Source of the DNA: a virus
Taxonomy: Duplodnaviria; Caudoviricetes
DNA length: 45,537 nt
Reading direction: 5' to 3' (one strand)
Virus record (IMG/VR): IMGVR_UViG_3300012987_000002
Coordinates: 1 to 45,537 of that record
Shown: positions 6,860-34,567 of the stretch, piece by piece
Layout of the letters: every line of letters begins with the position of its first letter
Position numbering within the stretch: the stretch's first letter is position 1
Made by a program: the position numbers and the translations under genes
The notes under the pieces: model-generated
Seen by the model: only the letters and a program-made list of their open reading frames with translations
Databases searched by the model: none
What the model was told of the DNA's origin: nothing

Positions 6860-6867
6860 GAGGAATC

Positions 6868-7047
6868 ATGGCAGCGAAGCCCAACAAGAAGGCACCCCTT
6901 GGTCAGGGTGGACGGTTCGCAGCGGTAGCCAAGGCCGCTGGCGGCGGCGAGAAGGGTAAGGCCATTGCGGCTGCGGCTGGTCGCAAGAAGTACGGTGCCG
7001 CCAAGATGGCCAAGATGGCTGCGGCTGGACGGAAGAAGGCGAAGTAA
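6868..7047 (+). CDS. 59-aa Lys/Ala-rich basic protein (not in ORF track)
   Basis: RBS AGGAGG; MAAKPNKKAPLGQGGRFAAVAKAAGGGEKGKAIAAAAGRKKYGAAKMAKMAAAGRKKAK; TAATG coupling to the next gene. Confidence 0.85.
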   Translation: MAAKPNKKAPLGQGGRFAAVAKAAGGGEKGKAIAAAAGRKKYGAAKMAKMAAAGRKKAK

Positions 7048-7292
7048 TGGCCCACTACCTGTACGACCCGGCCAAGGAGCCGTGTCCTCCGTTGTTCCAT
7101 CCCGATGAGTGCTGCTGCGCCATCTGTGGACCGGGCGGCAATAACACTCTGACTGAGAACAACGAGAAGGGGATCCTGGAAACGAACCTCTTCAAGACCA
7201 TTGCAATGCACCAACAGGCTCCGCTCGGCTCTGACCATGACAGTCACAAGCAGGGCATCTATACGACGAACAGCGCAGGAGACAACGACTAA
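7047..7292 (+). CDS. Hypothetical protein
   Basis: Coupled at both ends (TAATG). Confidence 0.7.
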   Translation: MAHYLYDPAKEPCPPLFHPDECCCAICGPGGNNTLTENNEKGILETNLFKTIAMHQQAPLGSDHDSHKQGIYTTNSAGDND

Positions 7293-7504
7293 TGGCAGTT
7301 CAGAAGAAGATCGATGCGCCGCTTCTCAGTGTGGGCGATCTGGTCCACCTGGTTACTGGTGGCCGCACTCTCCAGAACTATGAGGTTCTGGGGATGGATG
7401 ACCGCTTCCTGAAGCTGTCGGCCAATCCGCAGGTTGCACCGCAGACCGACACGATCCTCATTCCGTGGGGTGCTCTCGAAGTCCTTGGGCTCCCGAATGG
7501 CTGA
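7292..7504 (+). CDS. Hypothetical protein
   Basis: RBS AGGAG; coupled to the upstream gene. Confidence 0.7.
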   Translation: MAVQKKIDAPLLSVGDLVHLVTGGRTLQNYEVLGMDDRFLKLSANPQVAPQTDTILIPWGALEVLGLPNG

Positions 7505-7556
7505 GGGACGCTGCCCTGACTGCAAGCAGCCCTTCGAGAAGTGTAGGTGTACCTGA
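7497..7556 (+). CDS. 19-aa Cys-rich microprotein MAEGRCPDCKQPFEKCRCT
   Basis: Exactly fills the gap; 8-nt overlap upstream and TGATG overlap downstream. Confidence 0.55.
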   Translation: MAEGRCPDCKQPFEKCRCT

Positions 7557-7828
7557 TGGCAGGCAAGTTCAAGAAGGGCGCACGCTGTTCCTCCGCCTGT
7601 CCCACCAAGGATCACCGGACATTCGGGGAGTGCATGAGGAGCAAGAGCCTTCAGCTCTCCCCGCATGTCAACGGTGACTATGCCAAGAAGCAGAAGGCGT
7701 GGGACAAGGAGCTGGGCAACTATGAGTCGGCCGTCAACCAGGGCGTCCAGCCTCGTGGCACCAAGCAGGCTCAGATTGATGAAGCGATGAAGTCCAGCGA
7801 CGCGACAGGCGTCGCCTATCAGGCATAA
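7556..7828 (+). CDS. Hypothetical protein (CSSACPTKDH motif)
   Basis: ATG 7556 preferred because of the TGATG coupling. Confidence 0.7.
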   Translation: MAGKFKKGARCSSACPTKDHRTFGECMRSKSLQLSPHVNGDYAKKQKAWDKELGNYESAVNQGVQPRGTKQAQIDEAMKSSDATGVAYQA

Positions 7829-7837
7829 GGGGAAGAG

Positions 7838-8431
7838 ATGGCAGAGCAGCTAGTAGCAGTAGTCAATCCGGATGGGAGCCTTGTCGGCTCCGGCGGAGGC
7901 GGAGGCAGCGTTACTGTCACCAACTTCCCCGCAACGCAGACAGTCGCAGGCTCCGTGTCGGTGTCGAACTTCCCGGCAACTCAGCCTGTCTCTGGCACTG
8001 TCACTGCCAACGGTGGCACCAGCCCAACGCTGGCAAACTCCTGGAACGTCAAGCTTACCGATGGCACGGACACTTCCTCGATCACCACTTCGGGACTGGG
8101 CAATGCCCTTCTGGTGAGCACGGGCACTCAAGTGTCCGGCAAGACCCTCAGCGCCGTGGCCGTCAACACCACGGGCACCACGGTTGACATGGGGTCGGCC
8201 AAGGCCAACTTCACCAGCGTCGTACAGGCGACTGGAACCATCACTGGCACGGTCACTCTGGAGCTGAGCATCGACGGCACCGTATGGGTGTCCAGTACCG
8301 TCACGGCCAACGTGACGGTTGCTGGCAACCTTGCCCTGTACAGCATCGGACGTCCTGCGCGGTATGCACGTGTCACTCTTACTGCGCAGGCTGGAACTGG
8401 AACCATCACCGCTGACATCATGGGAGGCTAA
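7838..8431 (+). CDS. Thr/Val/Gly-rich minor structural or fibre protein
   Basis: Duplicated V-x-NFPATQ repeat; beta-rich composition. Confidence 0.6.
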   Translation: MAEQLVAVVNPDGSLVGSGGGGGSVTVTNFPATQTVAGSVSVSNFPATQPVSGTVTANGGTSPTLANSWNVKLTDGTDTSSITTSGLGNALLVSTGTQVSGKTLSAVAVNTTGTTVDMGSAKANFTSVVQATGTITGTVTLELSIDGTVWVSSTVTANVTVAGNLALYSIGRPARYARVTLTAQAGTGTITADIMGG

Positions 8432-8812
8432 GTGAGCATTCTTTCTGGATCCTCTACGACGGACCAGGGAACCATCATCACTATTCCTGCTGGCAAGTGG
8501 TGGAGGGGCAGCATCTCGATCTCCTCTTCACTCTCCGCCGGTATCAATGTAGGTGCGCAGCAGGCAACCCCGACAGTGACAATCCAGGGAACCAACTCCG
8601 ATCCGGTCAACGGATCGGTAATGGCTGCGGTATCTCTCTCGACGCCTGCCGTTGGTCTTCTGTCGCTCCTCGGAGTCACTTCCAACCAGTCAGTCTGTCA
8701 GGTTGGCATAGCCCTTCAGGCGCCTCCTGGCAACTCCGTGCTGCTCAGACTGAACTCGCCTTCCAGCACCGTAACCATCGCCGTTGCCCACGGCGAAGTG
8801 TCCGACTTCTAA
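8432..8812 (+). CDS. Hypothetical structural protein
   Basis: Abuts the upstream stop; beta-rich composition. Confidence 0.6.
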   Translation: MSILSGSSTTDQGTIITIPAGKWWRGSISISSSLSAGINVGAQQATPTVTIQGTNSDPVNGSVMAAVSLSTPAVGLLSLLGVTSNQSVCQVGIALQAPPGNSVLLRLNSPSSTVTIAVAHGEVSDF

Positions 8813-8820
8813 GGAGCAAC

Positions 8821-9750
8821 ATGGCTGCTACATTCGATCTGATCACGCAGCGGGTGAAGCAGCAATTGCTTGGCTACACCCGAGTGCAAGAGTCCATCTC
8901 CTACCTGTCCCAGGACATGACTGCTACTGACGTCATATTCCAGTGTGATCCGGAGACGTCTACCAACATGTCCCGGGGCATCGTAGAGATCGATGATGAA
9001 ATGCTTCTGGTCAAGAAGGTCGACAGGTCCACCGGACTTGTCAGCGTACTGGCCAACCTGAACGGCAGAGGGGCCGAAGGCACCGATCCAGCCCCTCACC
9101 TGACTGATGCCATCACGATTGCTGACCCTCGCTATCCTCGGGTCCGCATCAAGGAAGCCATCAACGACACCATCAGGGCTATCTATCCCGACATCTGGAT
9201 ATTCGGAGAGTTCGAGTTCCCTTACGTGGCAGCTCGTTACGAGTATCCGATCCCGGCGGAGGCAGAAGATGTCTACAAGGTGACCTGGAACACCATTGGC
9301 CCGTCCGCCATCTGGCGTCCGGCCAGGACCTACAGGTTCAATCCCCAGGCATCCACTGGTTCTCAGGTGAAGCCCACGCCTCCGCCCACAGGCAAGACCA
9401 TTCAGATCCTCGATGGCGGCATTGTCCCTGGACGGGACATCCGGGTGACCTACACCAAGAAGCCCAACGTCCTGGTCAATGGCAACGATGACTTCGAGCT
9501 GACTACCGGACTGCCTGACCGGATGATCGACATGATTACCTACGGCGCCTGCTGGCGCCTGCTGCCCGGCTGGGAAGCCGGTCGACTCCAGCAGCAGTCC
9601 ATTGAATCCACGGAGCGAGCCCCACTCGTTCCGACTGGTGCAGCTTCTGATGCGTCCAAGTACTTCCTTGGTCTGTATCAGCGACGGCTTGACGAGGAGC
9701 GGGACCGACTGTTCCGCCTCTACGAGAACTTCCAGACCTTCAACAGCTAG
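8821..9750 (+). CDS. Putative head-tail adaptor / tail tubular protein
   Basis: Start MAATFD at 8821 with RBS AAGGAG (the ORF-track upstream extension overlaps the previous gene); position in the tail module. Confidence 0.6.
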   Translation: MAATFDLITQRVKQQLLGYTRVQESISYLSQDMTATDVIFQCDPETSTNMSRGIVEIDDEMLLVKKVDRSTGLVSVLANLNGRGAEGTDPAPHLTDAITIADPRYPRVRIKEAINDTIRAIYPDIWIFGEFEFPYVAARYEYPIPAEAEDVYKVTWNTIGPSAIWRPARTYRFNPQASTGSQVKPTPPPTGKTIQILDGGIVPGRDIRVTYTKKPNVLVNGNDDFELTTGLPDRMIDMITYGACWRLLPGWEAGRLQQQSIESTERAPLVPTGAASDASKYFLGLYQRRLDEERDRLFRLYENFQTFNS

Positions 9751-9758
9751 GAGAGACC

Positions 9759-11105
9759 ATGGTAGTCCGCTTCTACAGCTCCGTGGCGCCAGAGACTACC
9801 CTCTCTGCTGGCATCACCAACGCATCCACGTCCATTCAGGTCGGTTCGGTTACGGGCTTCCCGACCAACACCCCCTACACCCTGGCTCTGGACTACGAGG
9901 GAGCCACTGAGGAGCTTGTTCAGGTCAACGGTGCAGCAGGCACTACCCTGACTGTTACCAGGGCCGTGGACGGCACCTCAGCGGCTTCTCACAATGCAGG
10001 CGCCAGGGTGCGTCACGTGTCCAGTGCTCGCGACTTTGCTGATTCAAGGAACCACGAGAACTCCGCAAACGGAGTTCACGGGCTGGCTCCAGGTGAGGAT
10101 CTGGTAGGCACCGACAAGGTGCAGACCCTGAGCAACAAGACCTTCATCAATGCCACTGGTTCCCTGTCGAACATCACCGTCAACAACGTGGGCAACAACG
10201 CCCTGAAGGTCGTCGGAGATCCTGCCAACCCTACCGATTCGGCTATCACCGTTCAGCCCGACACGCTGTCTCCTGTGGTGTTCAGAGTTCTGAACAACGG
10301 CCAGGTCCGGGTGGTCAATGCAGTGGCTATCGACCCGATCAACAACCAGTACAGGATCCGAGTGGTCAAGTCTGGTGGCACTGACATCTTCGCAGTGCTC
10401 TCCGGTGGCTCAGTGACTGCGACCCTGAACAACGGAGCGGATGGATACGGACTGACTGCTTCGCTGGACGATGTAACCCGCCAGGGATTCTTCATCAACT
10501 CGGCAGCGTCGGCTCTGAGGGCAGCCATCTACACCAATGGCACCATGGACCTGAACTGTTCCAGCCCCACCAACGCCATCCTTGACATCAAGATGGCTGC
10601 CGGACAGACCGGCAGCCCTCTCAGGATCCTGGACAGTGGGTCCACCACGATTGCCAGCATCACGGCAGCGGGCACCGTCAGTGCGCCGAACGCCAACCTG
10701 GGTGCGCTGACGGTCACCGGCCCTACAACCTTCACGCCTACGCTGTCTTCCGGCTCTCCGGTCTTCACGGCAGCCAGCGGGTGGACCACGTCCAGCGCAC
10801 TGTCAGTGCAGGTGGCGGGCATGACCACTATCGTCATCGCAGTTACTCGAAGCGGTGGCACCATCACGCCGGACAGCCCTTCCGGCAACCTGTCTCCAGA
10901 CGTTCAGATCGGCACTGTCGCATCTCTGCACAGGCCCAACGCTCTGGTCAGCCAGGCACTCATGGGCTCGATCAGCAACGCTGGCTCAAACGGTACCGTG
11001 CGACTGAACACTGACGGAACTGCCGATTTTGTCGCATGGACTGCCGGTGTCCCGATCGACAACACCACGGGAACCTACCGGTTCACGTTTACGTATCCCT
11101 CGTAA
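9759..11105 (+). CDS. Tail fibre / receptor-binding protein
   Basis: N-terminal TLTVTRAVDGT...H..GARVRH anchor motif, VGTDKVQTLSNKT, beta-rich C-terminus. Confidence 0.75.
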   Translation: MVVRFYSSVAPETTLSAGITNASTSIQVGSVTGFPTNTPYTLALDYEGATEELVQVNGAAGTTLTVTRAVDGTSAASHNAGARVRHVSSARDFADSRNHENSANGVHGLAPGEDLVGTDKVQTLSNKTFINATGSLSNITVNNVGNNALKVVGDPANPTDSAITVQPDTLSPVVFRVLNNGQVRVVNAVAIDPINNQYRIRVVKSGGTDIFAVLSGGSVTATLNNGADGYGLTASLDDVTRQGFFINSAASALRAAIYTNGTMDLNCSSPTNAILDIKMAAGQTGSPLRILDSGSTTIASITAAGTVSAPNANLGALTVTGPTTFTPTLSSGSPVFTAASGWTTSSALSVQVAGMTTIVIAVTRSGGTITPDSPSGNLSPDVQIGTVASLHRPNALVSQALMGSISNAGSNGTVRLNTDGTADFVAWTAGVPIDNTTGTYRFTFTYPS

Positions 11106-11113
11106 GGAGCAAT

Positions 11114-11311
11114 ATGGACTACCCCGGCTACAGGGTCAACGCACGGATCACTGGAACCTCTCCGCTGAATGATCTGGTCTTCTATCTCGACGTTGATAAT
11201 GACCCGACCTTCAATGCTGGCCTCAAGCAGGCAGTGAAGGACTACGTCAACTCCCTGTCTACGGAGTACAAGTCGTTCAAGTTCTACAGCATCACTAGTA
11301 CCGACTTCTAA
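11114..11311 (+). CDS. Hypothetical protein (possible fibre chaperone)
   Basis: RBS TAAGGAG before ATG 11114. Confidence 0.6.
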   Translation: MDYPGYRVNARITGTSPLNDLVFYLDVDNDPTFNAGLKQAVKDYVNSLSTEYKSFKFYSITSTDF

Positions 11312-11325
11312 GAAAGGGGTCCGCA

Positions 11326-13248
11326 ATGGAGGTCGTACGCAAGATCCCCGATCAGCTTTCCGGTCTGGGTTCTGCTGGCTCCGGCCAGTACATTCCACAG
11401 GACAACATCTACGACTACGCCATTGCGGGCCTGCCTTTCCTCTCCGCCATCACGGACAATCGTCCGCACACCAACCGCATGGCACCCATTCGCAAGGAAC
11501 AGTTCGACAACTTTGCAGAGCCTGGCGAGCAGTCCCTCGAAGGCTGGTGGCTCCGGTCGCAGTCGACGTTCAATGGTGGCGCAGGGGTTCTTTATCAGGA
11601 CCCCGACAACGACAATCAGTTCAACTACCGGTTCGCCACTTCACTGGGCATCGACTGCTGGACCAGTGGCCAGCTCAAGCTTCTCAGGAACTCCGTAGCC
11701 AATGGGGCTACGGCGCTGCCCAACAATGTCGTACAGGGCTACGTGACCAACGCTGGCAACAATGCCTACTGGCAGATGGATCAGCACAACCTGGACAAGA
11801 AGACTGCGACTGTCACCAGTGCGATCATCTCTGGAGCTGCTGAAGATCTGCTTGATCTTACGTCGACTGGTGCTACCTACATTGTGGCCAAGTCGACTGG
11901 CATCGTGAAGGGCGTGGATGGCGGAGCACCAACGACCATCTACACCGACTCCACCACGAATGCCATCATCGAGTTCGTGAAGGACCGGCTGATCTACTGC
12001 AAGAACAACCTTGTCTATCAGCTCCTGCTCTCCCCTGCCAGCCCTCCGGCTGCACTGCCTGCTGTCACGTACACCATGCAGGATCCTGATTGGAGATGGC
12101 GGAGCATCACTGACGGGCCTACCTCGATCTACATTGCAGGCGACTCAGGCACCACCAGCCAGATCCACAAGTTCTCTCCGACGCTGGACTCGGGCAACCT
12201 TCCTATCCTGGAATGGCAGGGCGTCACCGCAACCATGCCTGCTGGTGAGCTGATCAATACGATCTACACCTACGTCGGATCCTTTGTAGGCATCGCCACC
12301 AACAAGGGCTTCAGGGTCGGAGAGATCGACTCGAATGGTGACATCACCTACGGCCCGCTCACCATTGAGGTGAGCGGAGGATGCACTGCCATTGTCGGCA
12401 ACGACAGGTTCATGTGGACTGGGTCTACAGCCCAGCACGATGGCTCCTCCGGGCTTTACAGGGTCGACCTGGGTAACCAGATCCAGGAGCAGACGACAAG
12501 GGCTGTACGGTACGCCTACGCCCGTGACATCTACCTTCAGGGAGAGCCGGGTCGAGTGGTCTCACTGACCATGTTCGGCAACTCGGACCGCAAGGTGTTC
12601 GCCATCAACCAGTTCGGTTCCGTCAGAGAGCAGGCGACAGAGCTGCTGCCACAGGGAACACTGGACACTGGTCGCATCAGGTTCAACACCGAAGAGCCCA
12701 AGCTCTACAAGTTCTTCAGTGTCCGGGTGCCCAGTCCACTCGACGGCAATCTTGCAGCCTCCATCCTTACTGAAGGTGGAGGCGTCATTCCTACTGTCAC
12801 CTACGGTCCCACCCAAGGAGGTGGGACCAAGGACATCGGGATCTCTCAGCCTACCGGCCCTCAGAACTGGATAGCCCTGCGGTTCACTCTGTTCCGTGGA
12901 GTCTCGAACTCCAGCATCGGAGCAATCATGAATGGCTGGCAGGTCAAGGCCCTGCCTGGTTCCATCCGCCAGCGCATCATCACCCATCCGTTCCTGCTCT
13001 TCGACGAGGAGACCGACAGGGGCGGACAGGTAATCGGCTACGACGGCTACTGCCAGGAGCGACTGTCGAAGTTCGAAGCGATTGCCCGAGCCGGTGACGT
13101 CGTCCTGTTCCAAGAGCTTGCTTCCCAACTAGTGACCCAGGTGGTTATTGATGACTTCGAGTTCCAGCAGACAGGCCCTCCGGGACCTGATGGTCCGATC
13201 GGTGGATACCTTACCGTCGTTATGCGCACGGTAGCCGAGAGCACCTAG
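11326..13248 (+). CDS. Putative tail nozzle / tubular protein B
   Basis: 640-aa beta-rich protein at the end of the tail module; function assigned by position. Confidence 0.55.
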   Translation: MEVVRKIPDQLSGLGSAGSGQYIPQDNIYDYAIAGLPFLSAITDNRPHTNRMAPIRKEQFDNFAEPGEQSLEGWWLRSQSTFNGGAGVLYQDPDNDNQFNYRFATSLGIDCWTSGQLKLLRNSVANGATALPNNVVQGYVTNAGNNAYWQMDQHNLDKKTATVTSAIISGAAEDLLDLTSTGATYIVAKSTGIVKGVDGGAPTTIYTDSTTNAIIEFVKDRLIYCKNNLVYQLLLSPASPPAALPAVTYTMQDPDWRWRSITDGPTSIYIAGDSGTTSQIHKFSPTLDSGNLPILEWQGVTATMPAGELINTIYTYVGSFVGIATNKGFRVGEIDSNGDITYGPLTIEVSGGCTAIVGNDRFMWTGSTAQHDGSSGLYRVDLGNQIQEQTTRAVRYAYARDIYLQGEPGRVVSLTMFGNSDRKVFAINQFGSVREQATELLPQGTLDTGRIRFNTEEPKLYKFFSVRVPSPLDGNLAASILTEGGGVIPTVTYGPTQGGGTKDIGISQPTGPQNWIALRFTLFRGVSNSSIGAIMNGWQVKALPGSIRQRIITHPFLLFDEETDRGGQVIGYDGYCQERLSKFEAIARAGDVVLFQELASQLVTQVVIDDFEFQQTGPPGPDGPIGGYLTVVMRTVAEST

Positions 13249-25896: not shown

Positions 25897-26402
25897 TAGC
25901 CTTCCCTCCTGTAGTACTTGCTCATGTTCTCGTTGCTGTCCGGCTGAATCTGCCCGTTGTGCAGGTTCTCCAGCAGAACGCACTTGTTCCCGACGGCGAC
26001 GATCTTTCCGCGATAGTACCTCTGACCGCGAGATACCACGTCCCCGATCGACCAGTCCGGGTTCTTTGTAAACCCAAGGGGGTCGGATCGCGAACTCTCC
26101 GTATATTTCCAGAAAGGATCGTCGGTCTTCCCTAGACTCCCAAACCGACAGTCCTGGGACACTATCCATGCCAGATCTCCTTCCTGCCAGGCCACATAGT
26201 GCACCTTGGTGGTGAACGGAGACTTGAAGACCGTTCCCTGATGAGGGAACGGTGTGCCATCCTTGATTCCTTCGGTCAACATGTCGTGAAAGCTGTTCAC
26301 GATGCGCTGAGAGAACTTGTCAAGGCTTTCTTCTGCCTCCGCCCCTTTGTCGATCATGGCGGAGAGCCACTGGGCCTGCTTGGTCCTACTGGGAAGCGTC
26401 AA
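25896..26402 (-). CDS. Hypothetical early protein
   Basis: 168-aa ORF within the operon. Confidence 0.65.
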   Translation of the reverse strand: MTLPSRTKQAQWLSAMIDKGAEAEESLDKFSQRIVNSFHDMLTEGIKDGTPFPHQGTVFKSPFTTKVHYVAWQEGDLAWIVSQDCRFGSLGKTDDPFWKYTESSRSDPLGFTKNPDWSIGDVVSRGQRYYRGKIVAVGNKCVLLENLHNGQIQPDSNENMSKYYRREG

Positions 26403-26625
26403 GAACCTCTGTCTCCAGACTGATGACGGACTCGGCTCGGTAGACCTGAACGATGGACGTAGTCACACGGTTCACGTAGAACTCGACACCGGGCTTGCCG
26501 GTGGCGAAGATCCTCGCCTGCTCCTGGGCGTTCTCCAGGACCGCGTAGGGGCCGTCAAGGGCATCCTCGGGGTTGCTGGAGGGGTTCTCGGAGCTGTCGA
26601 TGTAGTACTTGTAGTTGCTGGTCAT
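26386..26625 (-). CDS. Hypothetical early protein (MTSNYKYY...)
   Basis: RBS AAAGGA before ATG 26625. Confidence 0.65.
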   Translation of the reverse strand: MTSNYKYYIDSSENPSSNPEDALDGPYAVLENAQEQARIFATGKPGVEFYVNRVTTSIVQVYRAESVISLETEVLDASQ

Positions 26626-26713
26626 CTGATTCCTTTCGTGATGAGGCCACAGGCCACCCAGGGGAGAGAGTTCCTGGGTGACTTGAAGCCCCACCCTTCC
26701 GGGTGGGGGTGGA

Positions 26714-27088
26714 TCAGTTGGTCAGGTTGGCGGCCGCAACGCCGTACTTGAGGGAATCGCCCCAGGTCTCTTCAGTGTCCTGGCGAAACTGAACCGCCCG
26801 CATGAAGACCATGGCCTTCCGGTCGAAGGTTGCCTTGCCTTCATCGCGAAGGTAGGTCAGGAAGTGGCCGATGATCGACTGATTCCATCCATTGGCGAGG
26901 AAGTCCTCAGCCGTCAGGGATGTGTTCTCGTACAGAGCACGTCCGATCAGGCAGGAAGGCTGATTCTCTTCAACGTCCCAGTACGAGCAGCTTACGGCAT
27001 CACCGGGCGGCTGGTACACGTAGTCTTCATTGCCCTTGACTACGTCAGAGACCCATCGATACGCATCCTCGTACGAAATGTGGAACAT
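26714..27088 (-). CDS. Early protein, paralogue of 29510..29920
   Basis: DYVY..C.Y..PSCLIG..QD...TWG; RBS AAGGAGAGAG. Confidence 0.75.
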   Translation of the reverse strand: MFHISYEDAYRWVSDVVKGNEDYVYQPPGDAVSCSYWDVEENQPSCLIGRALYENTSLTAEDFLANGWNQSIIGHFLTYLRDEGKATFDRKAMVFMRAVQFRQDTEETWGDSLKYGVAAANLTN

Positions 27089-27240
27089 GTCTCTCTCCTT
27101 TGCTTCCGTCCACGATGGGCGGAGAGGGATGTACGGATGAAGTCCTTGTCATCATAGCCCTGCGTGGCTAGACAGGCGCCTACTTATGTTTCGGCGATCC
27201 GTACATCCTTCGCCGCCCACCCCGAAGGGTGGGCAGTTCC

Positions 27241-27639
27241 TTACAGCTGGTGGCACTTCTTCACCATGTGGTCATGGAGCGCCTTTACCTCACCGCGAGG
27301 TGCGATCTCCACGAACTCTTCACTGCCTTCTACGACCTTCCCGCCCTCCAGCACGTCCGAAAGGGAGCCGTGGCCGACCTGAACAATTCGGGAACAGGCC
27401 TTGGCCTCCATCTTGTCCAGAAGCTTGCGAGCCCTGTCCTCGACGTTGAGGCCCATGATTTGCCCCAGGGCGATCAGCTCAGCCTCCTGCTGAAGCTCCT
27501 TGTCCCCACCTACCCGGAACTCCAGGCAAGTGTAGACCGCCCACTCTCCTACATACGTGATGTAGAAGGGGTCGGTGGAGTCATCAACAGACGCGTCATG
27601 CCGGAAGTGGACCGGGCAGGACTCGTAGCTGTTGCACAT
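27241..27639 (-). CDS. Hypothetical early protein
   Basis: RBS AAGGAGAGAG. Confidence 0.7.
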   Translation of the reverse strand: MCNSYESCPVHFRHDASVDDSTDPFYITYVGEWAVYTCLEFRVGGDKELQQEAELIALGQIMGLNVEDRARKLLDKMEAKACSRIVQVGHGSLSDVLEGGKVVEGSEEFVEIAPRGEVKALHDHMVKKCHQL

Positions 27640-27659
27640 ATCTCTCTCCTTTGATTCAT

Positions 27660-27726
27660 CAGCACCTATGTCTGTGATGCTGCCACAACGTCCCGCTTTG
27701 CGGCGGGGCGCTCTGGTTAGTCACAG
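27660..27726 (-). ncRNA. Early-region RNA motif, copy E0
   Basis: CTGTGA-CTAA-CCA-GAGC[stem]GTTG-TGG-CAGCA-TCACAG-acatagg-TGCTG. Confidence 0.75.
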
Positions 27727-27858
27727 CTAGCTTCCCCACGATCTGGCTTTGACCCGACCGCACTTGATGCAGACTCTCGCCTGCACGGTCATGATCTTAT
27801 CGCGCCTGGTGCGTACAGTCACCTCGCGATACTTGTTCCACTTATGGATGAGGTGCAT
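27727..27858 (-). CDS. 43-aa microprotein (MHLIHKW...CIKCG...)
   Basis: TAATG coupling; H..H..CxxC. Confidence 0.6.
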   Translation of the reverse strand: MHLIHKWNKYREVTVRTRRDKIMTVQARVCIKCGRVKARSWGS

Positions 27859-27928
27859 TACACGCTCTCATCCTTCAGTTCTTCATCGAGCACGATCGTC
27901 TCACCCATGTCGGTGTCGTCTTCCATGA

Positions 27929-28144
27929 CTACGCCTCTTCCATGAATACGGTGAAGATGCCCCAGGCCTTGTCCCAGTTGACTGCCAGCCACGTGCCGTC
28001 CAGGGCGGGCCGAAGCTCCACGAACCCATTGAGTTCGTCGATCTCTTCGAGATCCCAGGGATATCCGTCCCAGAGGTCAGTGATCTGCTTGCCACTGCCA
28101 GCCTTGGAATACTTGTACGGCGTGGCCGAACTGGTGAACTTCAT
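27929..28144 (-). CDS. Hypothetical early protein
   Basis: RBS AAGGAGAGAG. Confidence 0.7.
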   Translation of the reverse strand: MKFTSSATPYKYSKAGSGKQITDLWDGYPWDLEEIDELNGFVELRPALDGTWLAVNWDKAWGIFTVFMEEA

Positions 28145-28166
28145 GATTCTCTCTCCTTTGATTGAC

Positions 28167-28231
28167 CGGCACCGAGATGCCGCGACAACCTAGGGGCCCT
28201 TTCGGGCCCCGTAGGCTCTCACTGGTCTCGG
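28167..28231 (-). ncRNA. Early-region RNA motif, copy E1
   Basis: CCGAGA-CCAG-TGA-GAGC[stem GAAA]GTTG-TCG-CGGCA-TCTCGG-TGCCG. Confidence 0.78.
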
Positions 28232-28270
28232 AGGACCTTCTTCATGTGCAGAAGTGAGTGATGAGATACA

Positions 28271-28636
28271 TCACAGCTGCGCCTGGATGATGTCAGCAAT
28301 ATCGCCGAAGCCGAATCCGTTGTCATTCAGATCCGACAGGTACTCGTTCGGATCGGACATGTGGGGATTGCCTGATGGGAGCCCAAGCCTGCGAGCCAGG
28401 GCGTAAGGCAAGTGCCCGGTCATCCAGGCACTCTCTGCCCAAACGCCATCACTGACGTACGGGTCGTCGTAGGCGAAGGCATCGCCCACCCACTCACCCA
28501 TTCCCCAGTCGGCGGCAATGTCGCATGCCACCCCGAGGCAGCAGTACTTGTTTTCGCTCCTGAGCTGGCCCTGCCCCTGCACATAGTCTCCTGAGCGCAG
28601 GCGCTTGATCCATTCAGTCTTGAACGCCTCGTCCAT
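28271..28636 (-). CDS. Hypothetical early protein (W..LRSG.Y.QG...CCLGV family)
   Basis: WIKRLRSGDYVQG..YCCLGVAC..LNDNGFGFGDIADII; RBS AAGGAGAGAG. Confidence 0.75.
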   Translation of the reverse strand: MDEAFKTEWIKRLRSGDYVQGQGQLRSENKYCCLGVACDIAADWGMGEWVGDAFAYDDPYVSDGVWAESAWMTGHLPYALARRLGLPSGNPHMSDPNEYLSDLNDNGFGFGDIADIIQAQL

Positions 28637-28655
28637 TTCTCTCTCCTTTGTCCAT

Positions 28656-28720
28656 CAGCACTGAAGTGCTGGCACAACCCAGGGCCCCCGAAGGGGCCCG
28701 TGAGCTCTGCGTAGCTTCAG
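28656..28720 (-). ncRNA. Early-region RNA motif, copy E2
   Basis: CTGAAG-CTAC-GCA-GAGC[stem UUCG]GTTG-TGC-CAGCA-CTTCAG-TGCTG. Confidence 0.8.
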
Positions 28721-28778
28721 GTTCTGTACAGGTAGCCGATCATCCATACCAAGCCGACCAGTCCAAGCAGGATCATGG

Positions 28779-28931
28779 TCAGCCCTTCACGTGAGCACCG
28801 GATGCCGTGCCACTACCGAAGACCGTCATGGACTTGCGGGGCCTGGAGTTCCGGTTCTCGACCGACCGAAGCCACATCAGCGTCCGGTATCCCCGGCGCC
28901 GTGCGGAATTGACGGTGTGGTTCTTGTTCAT
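28779..28931 (-). CDS. 50-aa basic protein (MNKNHTVNSARRR...)
   Basis: RBS GGGAG; ATGA coupling. Confidence 0.55.
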   Translation of the reverse strand: MNKNHTVNSARRRGYRTLMWLRSVENRNSRPRKSMTVFGSGTASGAHVKG

Positions 28932-29245
28932 GATGTCTCCCAGATCGTGAATGCATAGCGCTGTCCGTGCAGAGTGCTGTCGCATCCTTCACAGGCAGTC
29001 ATGGAGTAGTCCCGCGTTTCGCAGTCGCACTCGGACTCGATCTCCTGAAGAGGCTCGTAGTCGCTGCACTCATGCCTGCTGGACAGCATTCCCTTGGTGA
29101 TGCGGTATTTGGCAGCTTCCCAGAGAATCCATTGTTCCCTGTCGTGCCCAGGGTCTGTGTGACAGTCTCCACATTCACCATTCATGTGGTGAAGCATGCA
29201 GTTGTCACACACCCAGACGGTGTAGCTGTCGCCCTTGCTCATCAC
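28928..29245 (-). CDS. Cys-rich early protein
   Basis: CDNC, CGDC, CDC and CEGC motifs. Confidence 0.7.
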   Translation of the reverse strand: MMSKGDSYTVWVCDNCMLHHMNGECGDCHTDPGHDREQWILWEAAKYRITKGMLSSRHECSDYEPLQEIESECDCETRDYSMTACEGCDSTLHGQRYAFTIWETS

Positions 29246-29415
29246 TCGCCTCCGCCAACAGCCATCTCGATGTCCCAGTCATCCAGGTAGAGAGTGCCAT
29301 TGCCGTCGGTGCGCTTGGCCTTCCAGCAGCCGTACATGGGTGATGTGATCTCGACCTCATAGCCATTGACCATCAGTCGCGTGCCCACGTAGTCCTTGTC
29401 GCCATCCTCAATCAT
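29242..29415 (-). CDS. 57-aa protein (MIEDGDKDYVG...)
   Basis: RBS AAGGAGAGAG; coupled downstream. Confidence 0.7.
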   Translation of the reverse strand: MIEDGDKDYVGTRLMVNGYEVEITSPMYGCWKAKRTDGNGTLYLDDWDIEMAVGGGE

Positions 29416-29433
29416 TCTCTCTCCTTGTTCATT

Positions 29434-29489
29434 CGGCTGTAGTGCCGTCTCAACGGCCCTCCGAAGAGGGCCGCTCAGCCTGGCTACAG
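29434..29489 (-). ncRNA. Early-region RNA motif, copy E3
   Basis: CTGTAG-CCAG-GCT-GAGC[stem UUCG]GTTG-AGA-CGGCA-CTACAG-CCG. Confidence 0.78.
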
Positions 29490-29509
29490 TCAGGGCCTGT
29501 GGGCCCCTG

Positions 29510-29920
29510 TCAGTTGCCTCCCTTTTCCACCCAGTCCGCTGCCTGACTCACCGCATTAGCCCAGGTGGTGCCTACATCCTGGCGGGCCTGAGCGAATTGC
29601 AGGAACTCGTCGGCCTTTCCGGGAATGTCGGCCAGGATGCCGTACTCCTTCAGGCCCGTGATGAGCTGATGGGCATCCTCACCCTCGAAGTCCTTCATGA
29701 CTCCCAGGGGAACCCCTGCCGAATGCAGCAGCGTGCCGACGAGGCAGCCGGGAACGCTGGCCTCACCATTGTTGTGCACGTACAGGCACTGCTGGTTGTA
29801 CCCATCATCTGCGGGCTCACCATCAGGCGTGACGTACACGTAGTCAGGGCCCACGGTCTCGACCAGTGCCTGAGCGCTGGCGAGAAGGGCATCGTACTGA
29901 AGCTTGATCGGCTCGTTCAT
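29510..29920 (-). CDS. Early protein, paralogue of 26714..27088
   Basis: Start MNEPIK with RBS AAGGAGAGAG; DYVY..CLY..PGCLVG..QD..TW. Confidence 0.75.
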   Translation of the reverse strand: MNEPIKLQYDALLASAQALVETVGPDYVYVTPDGEPADDGYNQQCLYVHNNGEASVPGCLVGTLLHSAGVPLGVMKDFEGEDAHQLITGLKEYGILADIPGKADEFLQFAQARQDVGTTWANAVSQAADWVEKGGN

Positions 29921-29936
29921 TTCTCTCTCCTTGTGT

Positions 29937-29990
29937 CGGCTGTGATGCCGTCTCAACGCTCCCTTCCGGGAGCGCTCAGAGTGGTCACAG
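29937..29990 (-). ncRNA. Early-region RNA motif, copy E4
   Basis: CTGTGA-CCAC-TCT-GAGC[stem GGAA]GTTG-AGA-CGGCA-TCACAG-CCG. Confidence 0.78.
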
Positions 29991-30203
29991 ACTGAAGTGA
30001 TGCCGGATGTGCCATTGACTCTTGGGGCCCGTGGTGTCCATGCACTGAATGTACGTGGCCTTGTGTGCGCCATTCAGCCACAGAGTGAACATGAATCGCC
30101 TGGCATTGATCCAGCGAAACCAGGTGACAGTGGAACCGGCATTGGGCTTCCATCCTTCAGAGGGGAAGTTGTGGCCGGTCCAGTCCTGGCGTTGATCAAT
30201 CAT
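29985..30203 (-). CDS. Hypothetical early protein (MIDQRQDW...)
   Basis: RBS AAGGAGAGAG before ATG 30203. Confidence 0.7.
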   Translation of the reverse strand: MIDQRQDWTGHNFPSEGWKPNAGSTVTWFRWINARRFMFTLWLNGAHKATYIQCMDTTGPKSQWHIRHHFSL

Positions 30204-30224
30204 GGTCTCTCTCCTTGGTTCAGT

Positions 30225-30293
30225 CAGCACTGAGGTGCTGCTACAACCAAGGAGCGCCCCGAAAGGCGCTCCGTTGGCTCTAGGTAGCCTCAG
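30225..30293 (-). ncRNA. Early-region RNA motif, copy E5
   Basis: CTGAGG-CTAC-CTA-GAGC[stem]GTTG-TAG-CAGCA-CCTCAG-TGCTG. Confidence 0.8.
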
Positions 30294-30502
30294 TAGATGT
30301 ACTCGCTCTGGTAGTACCAGACTTCCCATTCGTTCATGTCGGGAAGCCAGACGGTCACCAGGCACTCATCCTCACGATCCTGGAGGATGGTAATCTGATC
30401 CGGCGTGGCGACAAAGCGAGTAGCTTCCAGAAAGTCTGAGAGCTTCAGGTTGCCTACACCGATGGGCTGTGGATCGTCACCCATAATTACCTTGTTCAGC
30501 AT
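30290..30502 (-). CDS. Hypothetical early protein (MLNKVIMG...)
   Basis: RBS AAGGAG before ATG 30502. Confidence 0.7.
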   Translation of the reverse strand: MLNKVIMGDDPQPIGVGNLKLSDFLEATRFVATPDQITILQDREDECLVTVWLPDMNEWEVWYYQSEYIY

Positions 30503-30708
30503 GACCGCTCCTTGGTCCAGTGACGAATGTCCATCGATGACACCATTCCGCCCCGCAGGGCGTTGATCGAGTGAGTCTCGCAGACTTCCACCCAGGTGAC
30601 ACTGTCGAACTTCTCGCCCTGGAAGGAGTGGACCCAGTAGGCCTCCAGGCTCCTCTTGGAGCACTGCCTGCCAGCTCTGGTTTCAGCTATGCACTGTCCA
30701 TCCCACAC
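30496..30708 (-). CDS. Hypothetical early protein (C..C..C..H)
   Basis: RBS AAGGAGAGAG. Confidence 0.65.
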   Translation of the reverse strand: MWDGQCIAETRAGRQCSKRSLEAYWVHSFQGEKFDSVTWVEVCETHSINALRGGMVSSMDIRHWTKERSC

Positions 30709-30720
30709 GTTCTCTCTCCT

Positions 30721-30876
30721 TCAGTCTTCAGTGTGGTCTTCGCCGTCCAGATGCCAGTCTGCGCATTTAGTGCAGAACGGCACTCCGTCGTAGTCGCACT
30801 CAAGTGCAATGTCTCGCACGTGTTGCTCTACGTACTGGGGACGCTTCTTCATGAACTGAAGAATCTGATCTTCCAC
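30721..30876 (-). CDS. First early gene, 51 aa (C..CxxC..H)
   Basis: GTG 30876 with RBS AAGGAGAGAG. Confidence 0.65.
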   Translation of the reverse strand: MEDQILQFMKKRPQYVEQHVRDIALECDYDGVPFCTKCADWHLDGEDHTED

Positions 30877-30889
30877 ACTCTCTCCTTCA

Positions 30890-31605
30890 GTCTCTGCGTA
30901 CACATCGTGTACGCATTGGGCGGAGGATAGGCATAACACTCAAAAGAGCTGTCTACCCACCACCCTGATGCCCATCCAGACCACGAATGACCTGGCAGGC
31001 ATCAAGTAGGAGAGCCAGCCCCCCGTAAGGGGCTGGCGATAGGGCTGTGAGGCCCTATCGAGAGAGAAGGCATACGAACCAAGAGCGCCGTAGCTCGACC
31101 CGTAGGGAGCTGTCCTGCGCCTTCCACACGCCCGTTAGGGCGTAGTTGGTCCGAAGTTCGTATGCGACACACTGTTGAGTTCTCAAGGATCGTGGGTTCA
31201 TTCAACGGATTGTGAACGGCTGGTCGCCCATCCTGCCTACTCCCCCACTCAAGGGGGTCTCGCCAGTCTCTGTAAGCCCTGACTGCCTGTTGTAGCTATC
31301 CCCGAAGGGAGTCACCCGGCACGGCACTGACCTCGTATCCGTCTCCTGCCACTACAGCTTGTCCGTGACGCTCTCAATCCTGCCTCCGAGTGTCTGTGTA
31401 CCTACGTGGGCTGTAAGAGCCCCAGGCGAGCACACAGGCCTTCTTCAGGTTCATGTGAGCGTGTAGCCAAGCTGTTCAGTTCTGAAGGAGTCAGTGAGTC
31501 CCTGCACCCGCAAAGGATTCGCCCGGGTTGTTCACTGACTGTCAGCCGCTCGAAGCTTCCGACTGCTTGGCTGGTGTTGCTTGCCTCGCCGTCGTGCTGA
31601 CAACG
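30890..31605 (-). ncRNA. Long structured early leader or candidate ncRNA
   Basis: No RBS-supported ORF; dense nested inverted repeats; contains a boxA-like element. Confidence 0.5.
31172..31189 (-). promoter_or_regulatory. rRNA-leader-type boxA element TCCTTGAGAACTCAACAG
   Basis: Matches, from recall, the conserved actinobacterial rrn leader motif TTGAGAACTCAA. Confidence 0.65.
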
Positions 31606-31640
31606 AGAACTATCCACGTGCCGCCAAGGGCTGTCTACAA
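31605..31640 (-). promoter_or_regulatory. Putative host-sigma early promoter
   Basis: TAGACA-N17-GATAGT on the minus strand, at the head of the early leader. Confidence 0.45.
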
Positions 31641-32219
31641 GCAAACCAGAAGTTTGCCCTGTGGCGGAGAGGGATGCAGGGCCTGACCTGCACTGATGGC
31701 CTCAAAAGATTCTTCAGATTGCTGATGCGAAGGCAGGCCCGTAAGGCCTGCCGTGGGCTTCTGCCCCTTACCATCTGTACGCGCGTCTAGGCTGTATGTC
31801 CGGATAGATCCCCTGGATTCATACGCCTGTATAGCCTGTGTGGGCCGTGGTACAAAGCCTGGTACATAGTCCCCCACCTGCGATTCCATGGCAAACAGGC
31901 ACACAGACCATGGATTCTGTGGGATATCTACAGATCTTCCTGCGTTTACGTATGTATCCGCCGTTCATGGTTGTGAACATCCTACAAAGCTGCGCACATC
32001 TGATGGTGTGGCTGCTCATATGAGCGCTGTACAGTATGTACATGCAGAGGCCTGTATATCTATACATACTGTCCAGTGCTGCACGCATGAGCATGAGCCT
32101 GCTCACCTGAGCATGGGTAGACTGTTCAGTGCTAAGACTCTCGATGTCAAGAGAACTCAGAGTGTCCGAGCTGTGCACTCAGAGTGACCCGGGGATGTTT
32201 AATCCGGGGCGTGTGTGTG

Positions 32220-32503
32220 TGTGTGAGACCCACGACAGATATGACATGTATCACAGTCCACAGAGCCCTAGATCTACGCAGAGTAACCGATAGACTCGGG
32301 TCTTGTGACTCTCTGTAGATAGTTGGTAAAGAGTTGGTAAAGTAATGGAACCAAGCGGTGGGGTGCCGCCTACATCTTATAGTGAGACCTTAAAGATGTA
32401 GATCAAACAGTCTGAACAGTCTGAACAGCCCTAGTAGCTTCGAGCCCCAAGGCGAGGAGCTACAGTATCAATAGAACCTACGGCCACCCTTGAGGGGTGG
32501 CCT
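32220..32503 (+). promoter_or_regulatory. AT-rich control region heading the late operon
   Basis: Short tandem repeats (GTTGGTAAAG x2, AACAGTCTG x2) and motifs shared with 22991..23286. Confidence 0.6.
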
Positions 32504-32623
32504 TGGACATGCATACTTAAGAGCAGTACCGCTAACGCGGAATCATCCTCCGCCATAGACCTAAAGGAGTCGCGCGGATCGTGCTAAGCACAGACTGCGC
32601 AGTTCTTATAAAGGAGAAGGCGG

Positions 32624-34567
32624 ATGGCAAAAGTTTACAAGACTGAGGATGGCAAGCTCCACAAGAGCCGCCCTAAAGGCGGCTCACAGGGCAACCCTCA
32701 GATCAAGGCTGGCAAGGCTACCGTCCTGAAGTATCTCCAGAAGGGCCTGAGCCAGCGACAGGCTGCTGATGACCTTGGGGTCCACCCGAACACCATCCAG
32801 TACTGGCGGACCTCTGATGAGAACTTTCGCCACGACATGGACCGCATCAAGCTGATGCAACATCCCGAGCAGGCTGCCAAGGCTCGTGAGGAGATGCCGG
32901 AGTTCCCCGAGTTCTGCATGGAGTACCTGGACACTCAGCTCTTCTGGCATCAGCTCCAGTGGTACGACATCCTTGAGGGTCGTGAGCCCAGGGACCTGCA
33001 TCCTTCGCAGGTCTACAAGAAGGGTGACCCGGGGATGACGATTGTCAACACTCCTCCGGAGCACTCGAAGTCCACGACCATCACGGTCAACTACGTGACC
33101 TACAGGATCTGCCAGGACCCGAACATCCGAATCATCCTGGTGTCCCAGACTCAGGAGATGGCTAAGCGATTCCTGCGAGCGATCAAGGATCGCCTCGCCG
33201 GGGCCAACCAGTCCTACAAGAAGCTACAGCAGGCGTTCGCCCCTGAAGGGGGCTTCGATGCCAACTCTGCCTCCTGGACTGCCGACGCCATCTACATCAA
33301 CGCCGAGTCGCGAGACTCCGGCGAGGCTACCCCTACGGTGCAGGCTCTGGGTATGAACGGCCAGATCTACGGTAACCGTGCTGACCTGATCATCCTTGAC
33401 GACACCGTGACGGGGAAGAACGCTCATGAGTTCGAGAAGCAAATCGACTGGATCCAGCGAGAGGTCATCAACCGGCTATCCTACCCGGGTGGCACCCTTC
33501 TGCTGGTGGGAACACGCCTGGCACCAGTGGAACTCTACTCAGAGATACAGAAGCCAGAATGGTATGGACAGGATGAAGAGTCCCCTTGGACTTACCTCAC
33601 CCAACCTGCTGTACTTGAGTTTGCGGACAACCCCGATGACTGGCATGTTCTCGCACCCTGGACCAACCGGCCTCCGGTATCGCTCGGAGCAAGACGTCTG
33701 GTGGAAAAGAACGCAGACGGCCTTTACCCTTGGCACTCAGGAAAGTCTCTAGCCAGACGCCGAGCCACAAGCTCGGCTCAGAACTGGGCCATGGTCTACC
33801 AGCAGGAGCAGGTGACAGCAGATGCCATCTTCCCGCCCGACAAGGTTCATGCTTCCATCGACGGCATGCGTGCCGCTGGCTTTATGCAGAGAGGTGCACC
33901 CGGACATCGGGTCAACGGCATGGATGGACTTTATGTCATCGGCGGCTTTGACCCTGCGATCACAGGCCACTCTGCGGCAATCATACTGGGAGTCGATCGT
34001 GTGTCCGGAGTGCGGTGGGTTCTTGACGTATGGACTAGGCCCAATTGCAAACCTGACGACCTCTTCGACAAGATCAAAGAGTGGACAGTCAGGTACCACG
34101 TGAACGAGTGGGTCATCGAGAAGAACGCGATGAACCTCATGGTCACCCAGAACCGGGATCTCCGGAACTTCCTGGGCAGCCATGGCACCCACCTGCGTGA
34201 GCACTTCACCGGCAACAACAAGAACGATGTGGACTTCGGTGTTGCTTCCATGTCCATGCTGTTCGATGGAGCCAAGGAAGGCAAGGGCCTGATCCGGCTG
34301 CCCAATCGTTCTCAGAACGAGGGAGTCAAGGCCCTGATCGAACAGCTCGTCACCTGGTTTCCCCAGTCCAAGGCCAAGCAGGATACCGTGATGGCCCTGT
34401 GGTTCGCAGAGACCAAAGCTCGTGAGCTGGTCAACAACGTGGAGTCAATCTTCCACGTCTCCTCGGAGTATCAATCAGAACGCGATAGGCAGAAGTCTAT
34501 GGTGATAGACTTGGACTTCTACGCACAGTCAAGCATGGTTGAAGGCAATGGGGAGTGGTGGGGATGA
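32624..34567 (+). CDS. terL: Terminase large subunit with fused N-terminal HTH
   Basis: Walker A PPEHSKST, Walker B IILDD, VGTR coupling motif, nuclease GFDPA and QDTVMALW; N-terminal SQRQAADDLGVHPNTIQYW HTH. Confidence 0.9.
   Translation: MAKVYKTEDGKLHKSRPKGGSQGNPQIKAGKATVLKYLQKGLSQRQAADDLGVHPNTIQYWRTSDENFRHDMDRIKLMQHPEQAAKAREEMPEFPEFCMEYLDTQLFWHQLQWYDILEGREPRDLHPSQVYKKGDPGMTIVNTPPEHSKSTTITVNYVTYRICQDPNIRIILVSQTQEMAKRFLRAIKDRLAGANQSYKKLQQAFAPEGGFDANSASWTADAIYINAESRDSGEATPTVQALGMNGQIYGNRADLIILDDTVTGKNAHEFEKQIDWIQREVINRLSYPGGTLLLVGTRLAPVELYSEIQKPEWYGQDEESPWTYLTQPAVLEFADNPDDWHVLAPWTNRPPVSLGARRLVEKNADGLYPWHSGKSLARRRATSSAQNWAMVYQQEQVTADAIFPPDKVHASIDGMRAAGFMQRGAPGHRVNGMDGLYVIGGFDPAITGHSAAIILGVDRVSGVRWVLDVWTRPNCKPDDLFDKIKEWTVRYHVNEWVIEKNAMNLMVTQNRDLRNFLGSHGTHLREHFTGNNKNDVDFGVASMSMLFDGAKEGKGLIRLPNRSQNEGVKALIEQLVTWFPQSKAKQDTVMALWFAETKARELVNNVESIFHVSSEYQSERDRQKSMVIDLDFYAQSSMVEGNGEWWG

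Follow-up and report, generated by a model that had tools for sequence, protein, structure and literature searches.

The early genes of phage T7 are separated by long imperfect hairpins standing before ribosome-binding sites, the RNase III sites R0.3, R0.5, R1, R1.1 and R1.3, in which the cut lies at least about 12 nucleotides (nt) from the loop. T7 transcripts carry RNase III sites, and single-strand cuts by RNase III at loops leave protective 3' hairpins (PMC3867540). Targets of Bs-RNase III are also cited for the Bacillus phage SP82 (PMC4838370), and Streptomyces RNase III cuts the internal loop of the rpsO-pnp hairpin (PMC10126417). Pistol ribozymes cleave at a GU between P3 and P2 and have a P1 loop that is pseudoknotted with the P2-P3 junction (PMC4604425). 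We analyzed the IMG/VR record IMGVR_UViG_3300012987_000002, a viral DNA of 45,537 nt (the window, meaning this whole stretch), in which an initial annotation had noticed, from the letters alone, six copies of a two-state RNA structure between small genes. On balance, we read these elements as mRNA-processing cassettes that the RNase III of the host would cut. A cut at the cassettes is very probable, and if there is one, RNase III is quite probably the cutter; by analogy, the family likely works like the T7 sites.

The window holds a complete phage genome of 45.4 kb whose terminal repeat measures 123 nt. The portal protein shares 66-69% identity with those of 29 Streptomyces phage records, seven of which were opened; all seven were of cluster BF type and six were classed as Beephvirinae. 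Judged from these matches, the window is the whole genome of a Beephvirinae-like (cluster BF) Streptomyces podophage. The six elements sit in a leftward (minus-strand) block of small genes at the genome end, which its position and its synteny with BF phages mark as presumably early. All six were found on the minus strand with the consensus first described, namely the 5' strand of a 6-nt helix (P1), CYAN, a 3-nt helix (P2), GAGC, a variable hairpin, GUUG, the complement of P2, CRGCA, the complement of P1 (P1') and (UG)CYG, and each is followed by AAGGAGAGAG and a start codon. We numbered the copies E1 to E6 in transcription order. The cassette runs from P1 to the Shine-Dalgarno sequence (SD), and the new 5' ends are predictions for a putative cut at the junction just before CRGCA.

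E1: element 30293-30230, cassette 30209..30293, minus strand; predicted new 5' end 30240
E2: element 29990-29940, cassette 29925..29990, minus strand; predicted new 5' end 29950
E3: element 29489-29437, cassette 29419..29489, minus strand; predicted new 5' end 29447
E4: element 28720-28661, cassette 28641..28720, minus strand; predicted new 5' end 28671
E5: element 28231-28172, cassette 28151..28231, minus strand; predicted new 5' end 28182
E6: element 27726-27672, cassette 27644..27726, minus strand; predicted new 5' end 27682

The consensus pattern with its pairings matched six times in the window and once in 300 second-order Markov genomes of the same length. An Rfam search, a search of phage genomes and a covariance model had been suggested with the initial annotation. 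No Rfam family matches the element; the window gave one tRNA at gathering level and, at E up to 10 within 26000-32700, seven chance-level matches, none of them a ribozyme. A covariance model built from 40 copies, these six included, scored the six copies at 59-79 bits and the next match in the window at only 12.7 bits, so that there is no seventh copy. Within titles and abstract openings of mostly open literature, in a search that did not take in pistols in actinophages, no published description of this hairpin family was found. We conclude that the element is real and represents an RNA family not yet catalogued.

Pattern scans of viral and metagenome contigs and of named phages had a two-peaked outcome, and the element recurred in dozens of related contigs. 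Among the matches listed, 31 of 153 distinct ones retained 10-11 of the 11 pairs left free by the pattern. When the SD was not required, a scan gave 67 distinct matches in 69 loci, of which 39 were structured, and 32 of these 39 had RRGGAGAG at most 50 nt away. Named BF phages have mostly one copy, ahead of the second early gene, and some uncultured relatives have five to eight. Copies with GAGAG, E5 among them, escaped the regular expression used for homologues, and E5 was placed in the alignment (A3) manually; a relaxed search around the G.G mismatch missed canonical copies and served for single variants only, not for counts. The covariance model had no match in three Streptomyces genomes, with 150 candidates scored per genome and no positive control. 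As a separate observation, one contig (L132, 3418-7269) holds four near-identical cassettes, which suggests recent duplication or conversion.

The two mutually exclusive folds proposed at the outset both covary. For the long fold, 96% of cells were paired in the 40 copies, with double-sided changes at 10 of 13 pairs, none of 500 shuffles as high and slid registers at 26-42%; the copies are related and were selected for pairing, so these figures overstate the case. The 3' hairpin, which was not selected for, has the C of CRGCA as its exact first base in 36 of the 39 copies, against a mean of 6 and a maximum of 12 with shuffled tails, and shows three-way covariation (C/G/C 25, U/A/U 7, wobble 4). 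That the element belongs to the RNA level was borne out by UNCG or GNRA loops in 26 of the 39 homologues and by a sense strand more stable than the opposite one in 38. Other parts of the original description needed revision. Positions called invariant vary in homologues (CA to UA; G.U to G-C or A-U; A-U to U-A; C-G to G-C). In E3 the first P2 pair is a G.A mismatch; across homologues, G at the N of CYAN accompanies a mismatch at this pair in 17 of 19. In E6, seven additional nt separate P1' from UGCUG. An upstream stop codon had been placed in P1 of E2, E4 and E5, which is partly right under either numbering: the in-frame stop lies in P1 in E1 (a 70-amino-acid open reading frame (ORF), stop at 30292), E2 (72 amino acids, stop at 29987) and E4 (19 codons), and 23, 42 and 3 nt upstream in E3, E5 and E6, respectively. 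Among homologues with an assignable ORF, the stop falls in P1 in 19 of 28. In E5 an 8-codon mini-ORF ends within P2, and a chain of overlapping mini-ORFs (28274-28221, minus strand; 9-10 and 8 codons, with TGATG and ATGA overlaps) spans from the upstream stop to P2, possibly by chance.

Computed for the six copies, the long hairpin and the refolded state lie within 0-6 kcal/mol of each other. In predicted folding during transcription the long hairpin forms first in all six, and masking the first 10 nt yields the refolded state, again in all six. The bulged C is paired in the second fold, and changes of CA to UA come with a compensating U.G or U-A; this suggests that the bulged C acts as a toehold and not in catalysis. 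In either fold most of the SD stays unpaired, with mean unpaired values of 0.53-0.84 before the cut and 0.75-1.0 after it, so that the translational switch considered earlier lacks support. Folds that hide and expose an SD or a terminator, as in a riboswitch, were not found in the six copies, where the SD is largely open and there is no U-tract. An intrinsic terminator was rejected on the same lack of a U-tract, only the E1 upper hairpin being flagged (four found against 3.2 expected), and a pseudoknot joining P1 and the 3' hairpin was rejected on inspection, the connecting loop being 0-2 nt.

Pistol ribozymes stand in equivalent slots of related phages. Rfam scans of 66 fetched loci found pistols (RF02679) in three BF-like contigs, between early genes, and most of them are followed by a product hairpin and an SD.

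L463, 1625-4019: pistol ribozymes (Rfam)
L431, 258-330 and 1596-1670: pistol ribozymes (Rfam)
L200, 4710-4775: pistol ribozyme (Rfam)

In L463/L423, two boxA-like motifs are followed by five pistols in a row (48.6-70.5 bits; cut-off 34.5) and then by one of the cassettes described here. A pistol in L463 precedes a homologue of the gene behind E1 (52% over 54 amino acids, E 6e-18), and a pistol there also precedes a homologue of the gene behind E2 (31% over 140 amino acids, E 3e-12), for which orthology is uncertain because the family is multi-copy. In seven of the eight distinct pistols of the three contigs, the 3' product hairpin starts within the first 1-2 nt and competes with P2, and the idea that 5'-hydroxyl pistol products need no hairpin was thereby ruled out. 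From cut to SD the five L463 pistols measure 20-28 nt, and from junction to SD the window cassettes measure 18-31 nt. Of all the evidence for cutting at these slots, this equivalence is the strongest, and it would put the cut in the window cassettes at the base of the 3' hairpin. The initial idea of a cut that sets each downstream mRNA free, with a hairpin at its 5' end from about the C of CRGCA on, is supported; the pistol-filled slots of a relative share this product design. In an unrelated 95-kb viral contig (L470, 2974-5691), a stretch of 2.7 kb contains two pistols together with three type II hammerheads.

The architecture itself extends beyond the present sequence. Of 119 SD-anchored early-gene leaders from 32 loci of BF-like phages, 91 were called as a long hairpin with an exclusive 3' hairpin, against 24 of 182 shuffles, 62 of 182 tail-only shuffles and 4 of 41 late-gene leaders. 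The 91 comprised 46 leaders of this type, 36 of other types and nine that were dropped, six judged miscalled by eye and three without a junction; three dropped first-gene leaders later showed G.G, A-U and G-C with a hairpin from +1. The remaining leaders were thinned to 25 of this type and 30 of other types, the latter unrelated in sequence. The loop-to-junction distance was 12-20 nt in the former and 13-19 nt in the latter, and the pair at -4 from the junction was non-Watson-Crick in 25 of 25 and 26 of 30, respectively. The gene behind E6 has homologues preceded by this cassette in four other contigs, and in seven BF loci the hairpins before its homologues are unrelated, which fits a nuclease that reads shape. 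The bulged CA with its loop had been regarded as the indispensable core, a view that lacks support, since equivalent slots in relatives hold other hairpins, and some hold variants without CYAN/CRGCA. To judge by these leaders, the architecture is general among early genes and the core sequence is interchangeable.

Of the three options first listed, an RNase III-like site, a protein-binding switch and a self-cleaving RNA, the RNase III-like site fits best. The early transcript would fold first into the long hairpin, and an antiterminated, fast polymerase would let such hairpins fold ahead of ribosomes. Host RNase III would then cut the 3' strand just before CRGCA, the exact bond being one that we infer, and once freed, the downstream piece would form a new hairpin that begins at its 5' terminus and leaves the SD behind it open. 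This 5' hairpin would drive product release and protect the 5'-monophosphate end against RNase J/E; substrates with such an end are preferred by the RNase J of Streptomyces (PMC10126417). After a single nick, the upper hairpin would stay on the upstream message and protect its 3' end, and the competition between the folds may tune the fraction that is cut.

The dimensions of the element are consistent with this enzyme. In 39 copies the helix above the putative junction spans 10-18 base pairs (bp; median 13), with at least 11 bp in 38 of them, and a minimum of 11 bp is given for E. coli RNase III together with its box consensus (PMC1540722); similar preferences are given for B. subtilis (bioRxiv 10.1101/2023.03.12.532304). 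With the cut placed at this presumed position, the helix that the enzyme needs, at least about 11 bp from cut to loop and about two turns in all, is present, with about 8 bp lying below. The E. coli proximal box reads G-C, W-W, A-U, W-W, and Streptomyces preferences may differ; with a cut before CRGCA the copies read G.U (38 of 39), A-U (39 of 39), G.G (39 of 39) and W-W, that is A-U or U-A (30 of 39), and a single U-A swap at position 2 was seen outside the 39. Mapped E. coli sites rarely match the consensus fully (PMC5371410), and the proximal-box score picked a unique best register in only two of four T7 hairpins.

Several observations weigh against RNase III. The Streptomyces host is presumed from relatives and synteny. 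The helix below the junction has only the 8 bp or so mentioned, with a loop and a bulge in it. In the proximal box, position 1 is G.U and not G-C (38 of 39), position 3 is G.G and not A-U, and position 4 is G-C or C-G in 9 of 39 copies (14 of 39 in a second set), which is a catalytic antideterminant in E. coli. The E. coli distal box (U-A, U.G) is unmatched, position -12 being mixed and -11 being C-G in 34 of 39, which puts G on the cut strand as in U.G. About ten positions, among them two unpaired A's, are near-invariant, more than RNase III usually needs, and most of these were imposed by the searches. In the leaders of other types, G-Y at -6 is not specific to the register, being present in 19 of 30 at the junction itself and in 22 when the register is moved by four nt; position -5 is a G-C pair in 11 of the 30. 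At equilibrium the refolded state dominates in uncut E1, E4 and E6, so that cutting would need speed. Finally, T7 3' products are unstructured, and the covarying refolding hairpin at the 5' end has no T7 precedent.

As in T7, the cassettes lie between presumably early genes just before ribosome-binding sites, on what is presumably a host-polymerase transcript, with long imperfect hairpins and a similar distance from loop to cut. Stop codons are found in the lower stems of two T7 hairpins, and a boxA is present in the T7 leader before the first hairpin. Unlike in T7, the E. coli boxes are only partly matched here, and the slots are shared with pistols. In the early region of SPO1, a Gram-positive (Bacillus) phage, strong SDs are likewise preceded by hairpins of a multi-copy family, conserved in the loop and variable in the apical stem, which by analogy we infer to be Bs-RNase III sites of the SP82 kind; the family differs in having no sequence likeness and, by our architecture caller, no consistent refolding hairpin at the junction. 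This repeated family lies at 5800-12700 of SPO1 (L391), where a second motif (UGAGUAAGUCC with a hairpin) precedes three early genes. With the Actino-pnp RNA (RF01688) of Streptomyces rpsO-pnp, the element shares the host RNase III as presumed cutter and the order of mismatch and pairs, which reads U.U, G.U, G-C, C-G in the pnp hairpin in a presumed register; cleavage there destabilizes the mRNA, and there is no refolding hairpin. The Actino-pnp model found no real match in the window, with a best score of 17.7 bits (cut-off 47.7) elsewhere in the region. As a side observation, the stem from which Streptomyces 16S rRNA is processed has, downstream of 16S in L387/L388, a 3' strand resembling that of the slot-1 cassette with three bases added, although it pairs in another register.

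If the cassettes are cut, they could cut themselves as a new class of small ribozyme, perhaps a compact pistol relative, the two being interchangeable tools with which BF-like phages would make single-gene, hairpin-capped mRNAs; the self-cut would perhaps fall at the junction or at the G-U of GUUG, with the 3' hairpin freeing the product. We regard this as unlikely, although the element alternates with pistols in the same slots, shares their product design, and has a variable hairpin along with its ten or so near-invariant positions. Pistol, twister sister and hatchet were themselves found by nearness to ribozymes and phage genes (PMC4604425). Furthermore, GAGC-[hairpin]-GUUG has the letters and spacing of the pistol GAGCG-[P3]-GU(G/U)G, a likeness that may reflect descent. 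However, the pistol P1 and pseudoknot, which are required for activity (PMC4604425), are absent from the element, as is the AG ahead of the pseudoknot strand; an upstream complement reached at best 4-6 of 6 positions, scattered, and no P1 hairpin was seen by eye. The pistol model had no match in the window at E up to 10, and with this library pistols are detected in relatives. In the element the letters shared with pistol form pairs among themselves, and the C-G, G.U and A-U pairs swap with pairing kept, so that the scissile G-U of pistol lies inside a helix; the GU of the element pairs with GC and swaps to G-C or C-G, unlike the unpaired GU junction of pistol. A cut at G-U would leave six unpaired nt before the hairpin, against 0-1 nt in pistol products, and the variants that lose CYAN/CRGCA also speak against a catalytic core. 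Hammerhead, twister, twister sister, hatchet, HDV-like and hairpin ribozymes have a three- or four-way junction or a pseudoknot as their core, unlike the single, irregular and unbranched helix of the element, and no model for these classes matched in 26000-32700 (Rfam coverage of every class was unchecked). Another protein endonuclease, of phage or host, with the G.G/A-U/G.U helix and the bulged A's as its recognition features, would suit the strongly conserved core and the incomplete match to the E. coli boxes, and most early and middle proteins have no family assignment (35 and 30 window proteins scanned). Against this, no ribonuclease family was found among these proteins, a set smaller than all ORFs, one genome holds several unrelated hairpin sequences of the same geometry, and the first genes need processing before phage proteins exist, which makes such an enzyme very improbable.

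It is also possible that the RNA is not cut at all and that the element is a ribosome-coupled conformational switch, or a terminator or pause without U's, in which a ribosome halted in P1 would melt the long hairpin into two stacked hairpins and so control read-through or stability. The small energy difference between the folds, the refolding upon blocking of the first 10 nt and the frequency of stop codons in P1 agree with this, and the boxA-like motifs of the leader suggest that the operon needs antitermination. The SD is mostly unpaired in either fold, though, a U-tract is lacking with terminator predictions near the expected number, the cleaved hairpins of T7 overlap stop codons too, and the pistols in the same slots point to cutting; we therefore find this alternative quite doubtful. 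Lastly, the copies could be DNA-level repeats that shuffle early genes by recombination, as the near-identical copies within L132 and the mosaic early region might indicate. The G.U pairs, UNCG/GNRA loops, strand asymmetry and three-way covariation with the downstream hairpin indicate RNA instead, no integrase matched among the proteins scanned, and shuffling may be a side effect, so we give this idea hardly any weight. An attC-like DNA site was rejected in the same way, as its motif GTTRRRY is not kept and no integrase was found among the scanned proteins.

If the RNase III reading is true, T7-style processing would operate in actinophages with an added step, the 5' hairpin of the product being already encoded in the RNA that is cut. 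One phage would then use protein-cut hairpins and another pistols, in the same slots and with the same product design, and small phage ribozymes would substitute for RNase III sites in making stable single-gene mRNAs. For expression in Streptomyces, the cassettes could also be used as portable parts that process and stabilize a message. Should the element instead cut itself, it would be a new ribozyme class.

The genes behind the six cassettes are the following.

29985..30203, minus strand: 72-amino-acid gene behind E1, homologue behind a pistol in L463
29510..29920, minus strand: 136-amino-acid gene behind E2, phrog_572, a multi-copy family, homologue behind a pistol in L463
29242..29415, minus strand: 57-amino-acid gene behind E3, no family found
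28271..28636, minus strand: 121-amino-acid gene behind E4, phrog_18067
27929..28144, minus strand: 71-amino-acid gene behind E5, no family found
27241..27639, minus strand: 132-amino-acid gene behind E6, a family with this cassette in some relatives and unrelated hairpins in seven other BF loci

No DNA polymerase family was seen among the window proteins scanned. The tRNA that was the only gathering-level Rfam match is the single one in the window, against at least 20 in phage WRightOn. No promoter for the early operon was identified in the window, and blastn searches against named phages, with the region or a single copy as query, were uninformative. The early leader contains two boxA-like motifs.

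31172..31187, minus strand: boxA-like motif, identical to a motif about 200 nt before 16S in two Streptomyces genomes
31472..31487, minus strand: second boxA-like motif, two mismatches, position conserved in relatives

In the same two Streptomyces genomes a variant of the rrn motif stands before 23S. Six of the seven named BF phages have one or two copies of the motif, which is also conserved in the leaders of BF-like contigs (L125-L130, L132, L184, L201, L463). We named it for its position in the rrn leader and spacer and its likeness to the B. subtilis boxA consensus as given in PMC13753749; a published Streptomyces boxA sequence was not found in the literature searched. Antitermination of the phage operon of the rrn type is possible, to go by these motifs. 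The non-coding leader (30870-31215, minus strand) folds with -161 kcal/mol over 345 nt, a value without a shuffle control, and is partly conserved in L132. In other early leaders (L130 19526-19634, L147 1450-1558, L134 4184-4293 and L412 172-314) we observed a piece resembling 16S rRNA (model positions 106-311 minus about 97 nt, 73-85 bits), upstream of boxA where checked, which is possibly a mimic of the 16S 5' domain; it was not found in the window.

Two further RNAs flank the last early gene. Before it (about 27093-27215, minus strand) lies a distinct branched RNA with the conserved loop GAAACAUAAGUA, which has no Rfam match and is present in all seven named BF phages opened. After it (about 26640-26715, minus strand), a hairpin displays CUCUCUCCCC, complementary to the early-gene SD, and a similar element is found in named BF phages.

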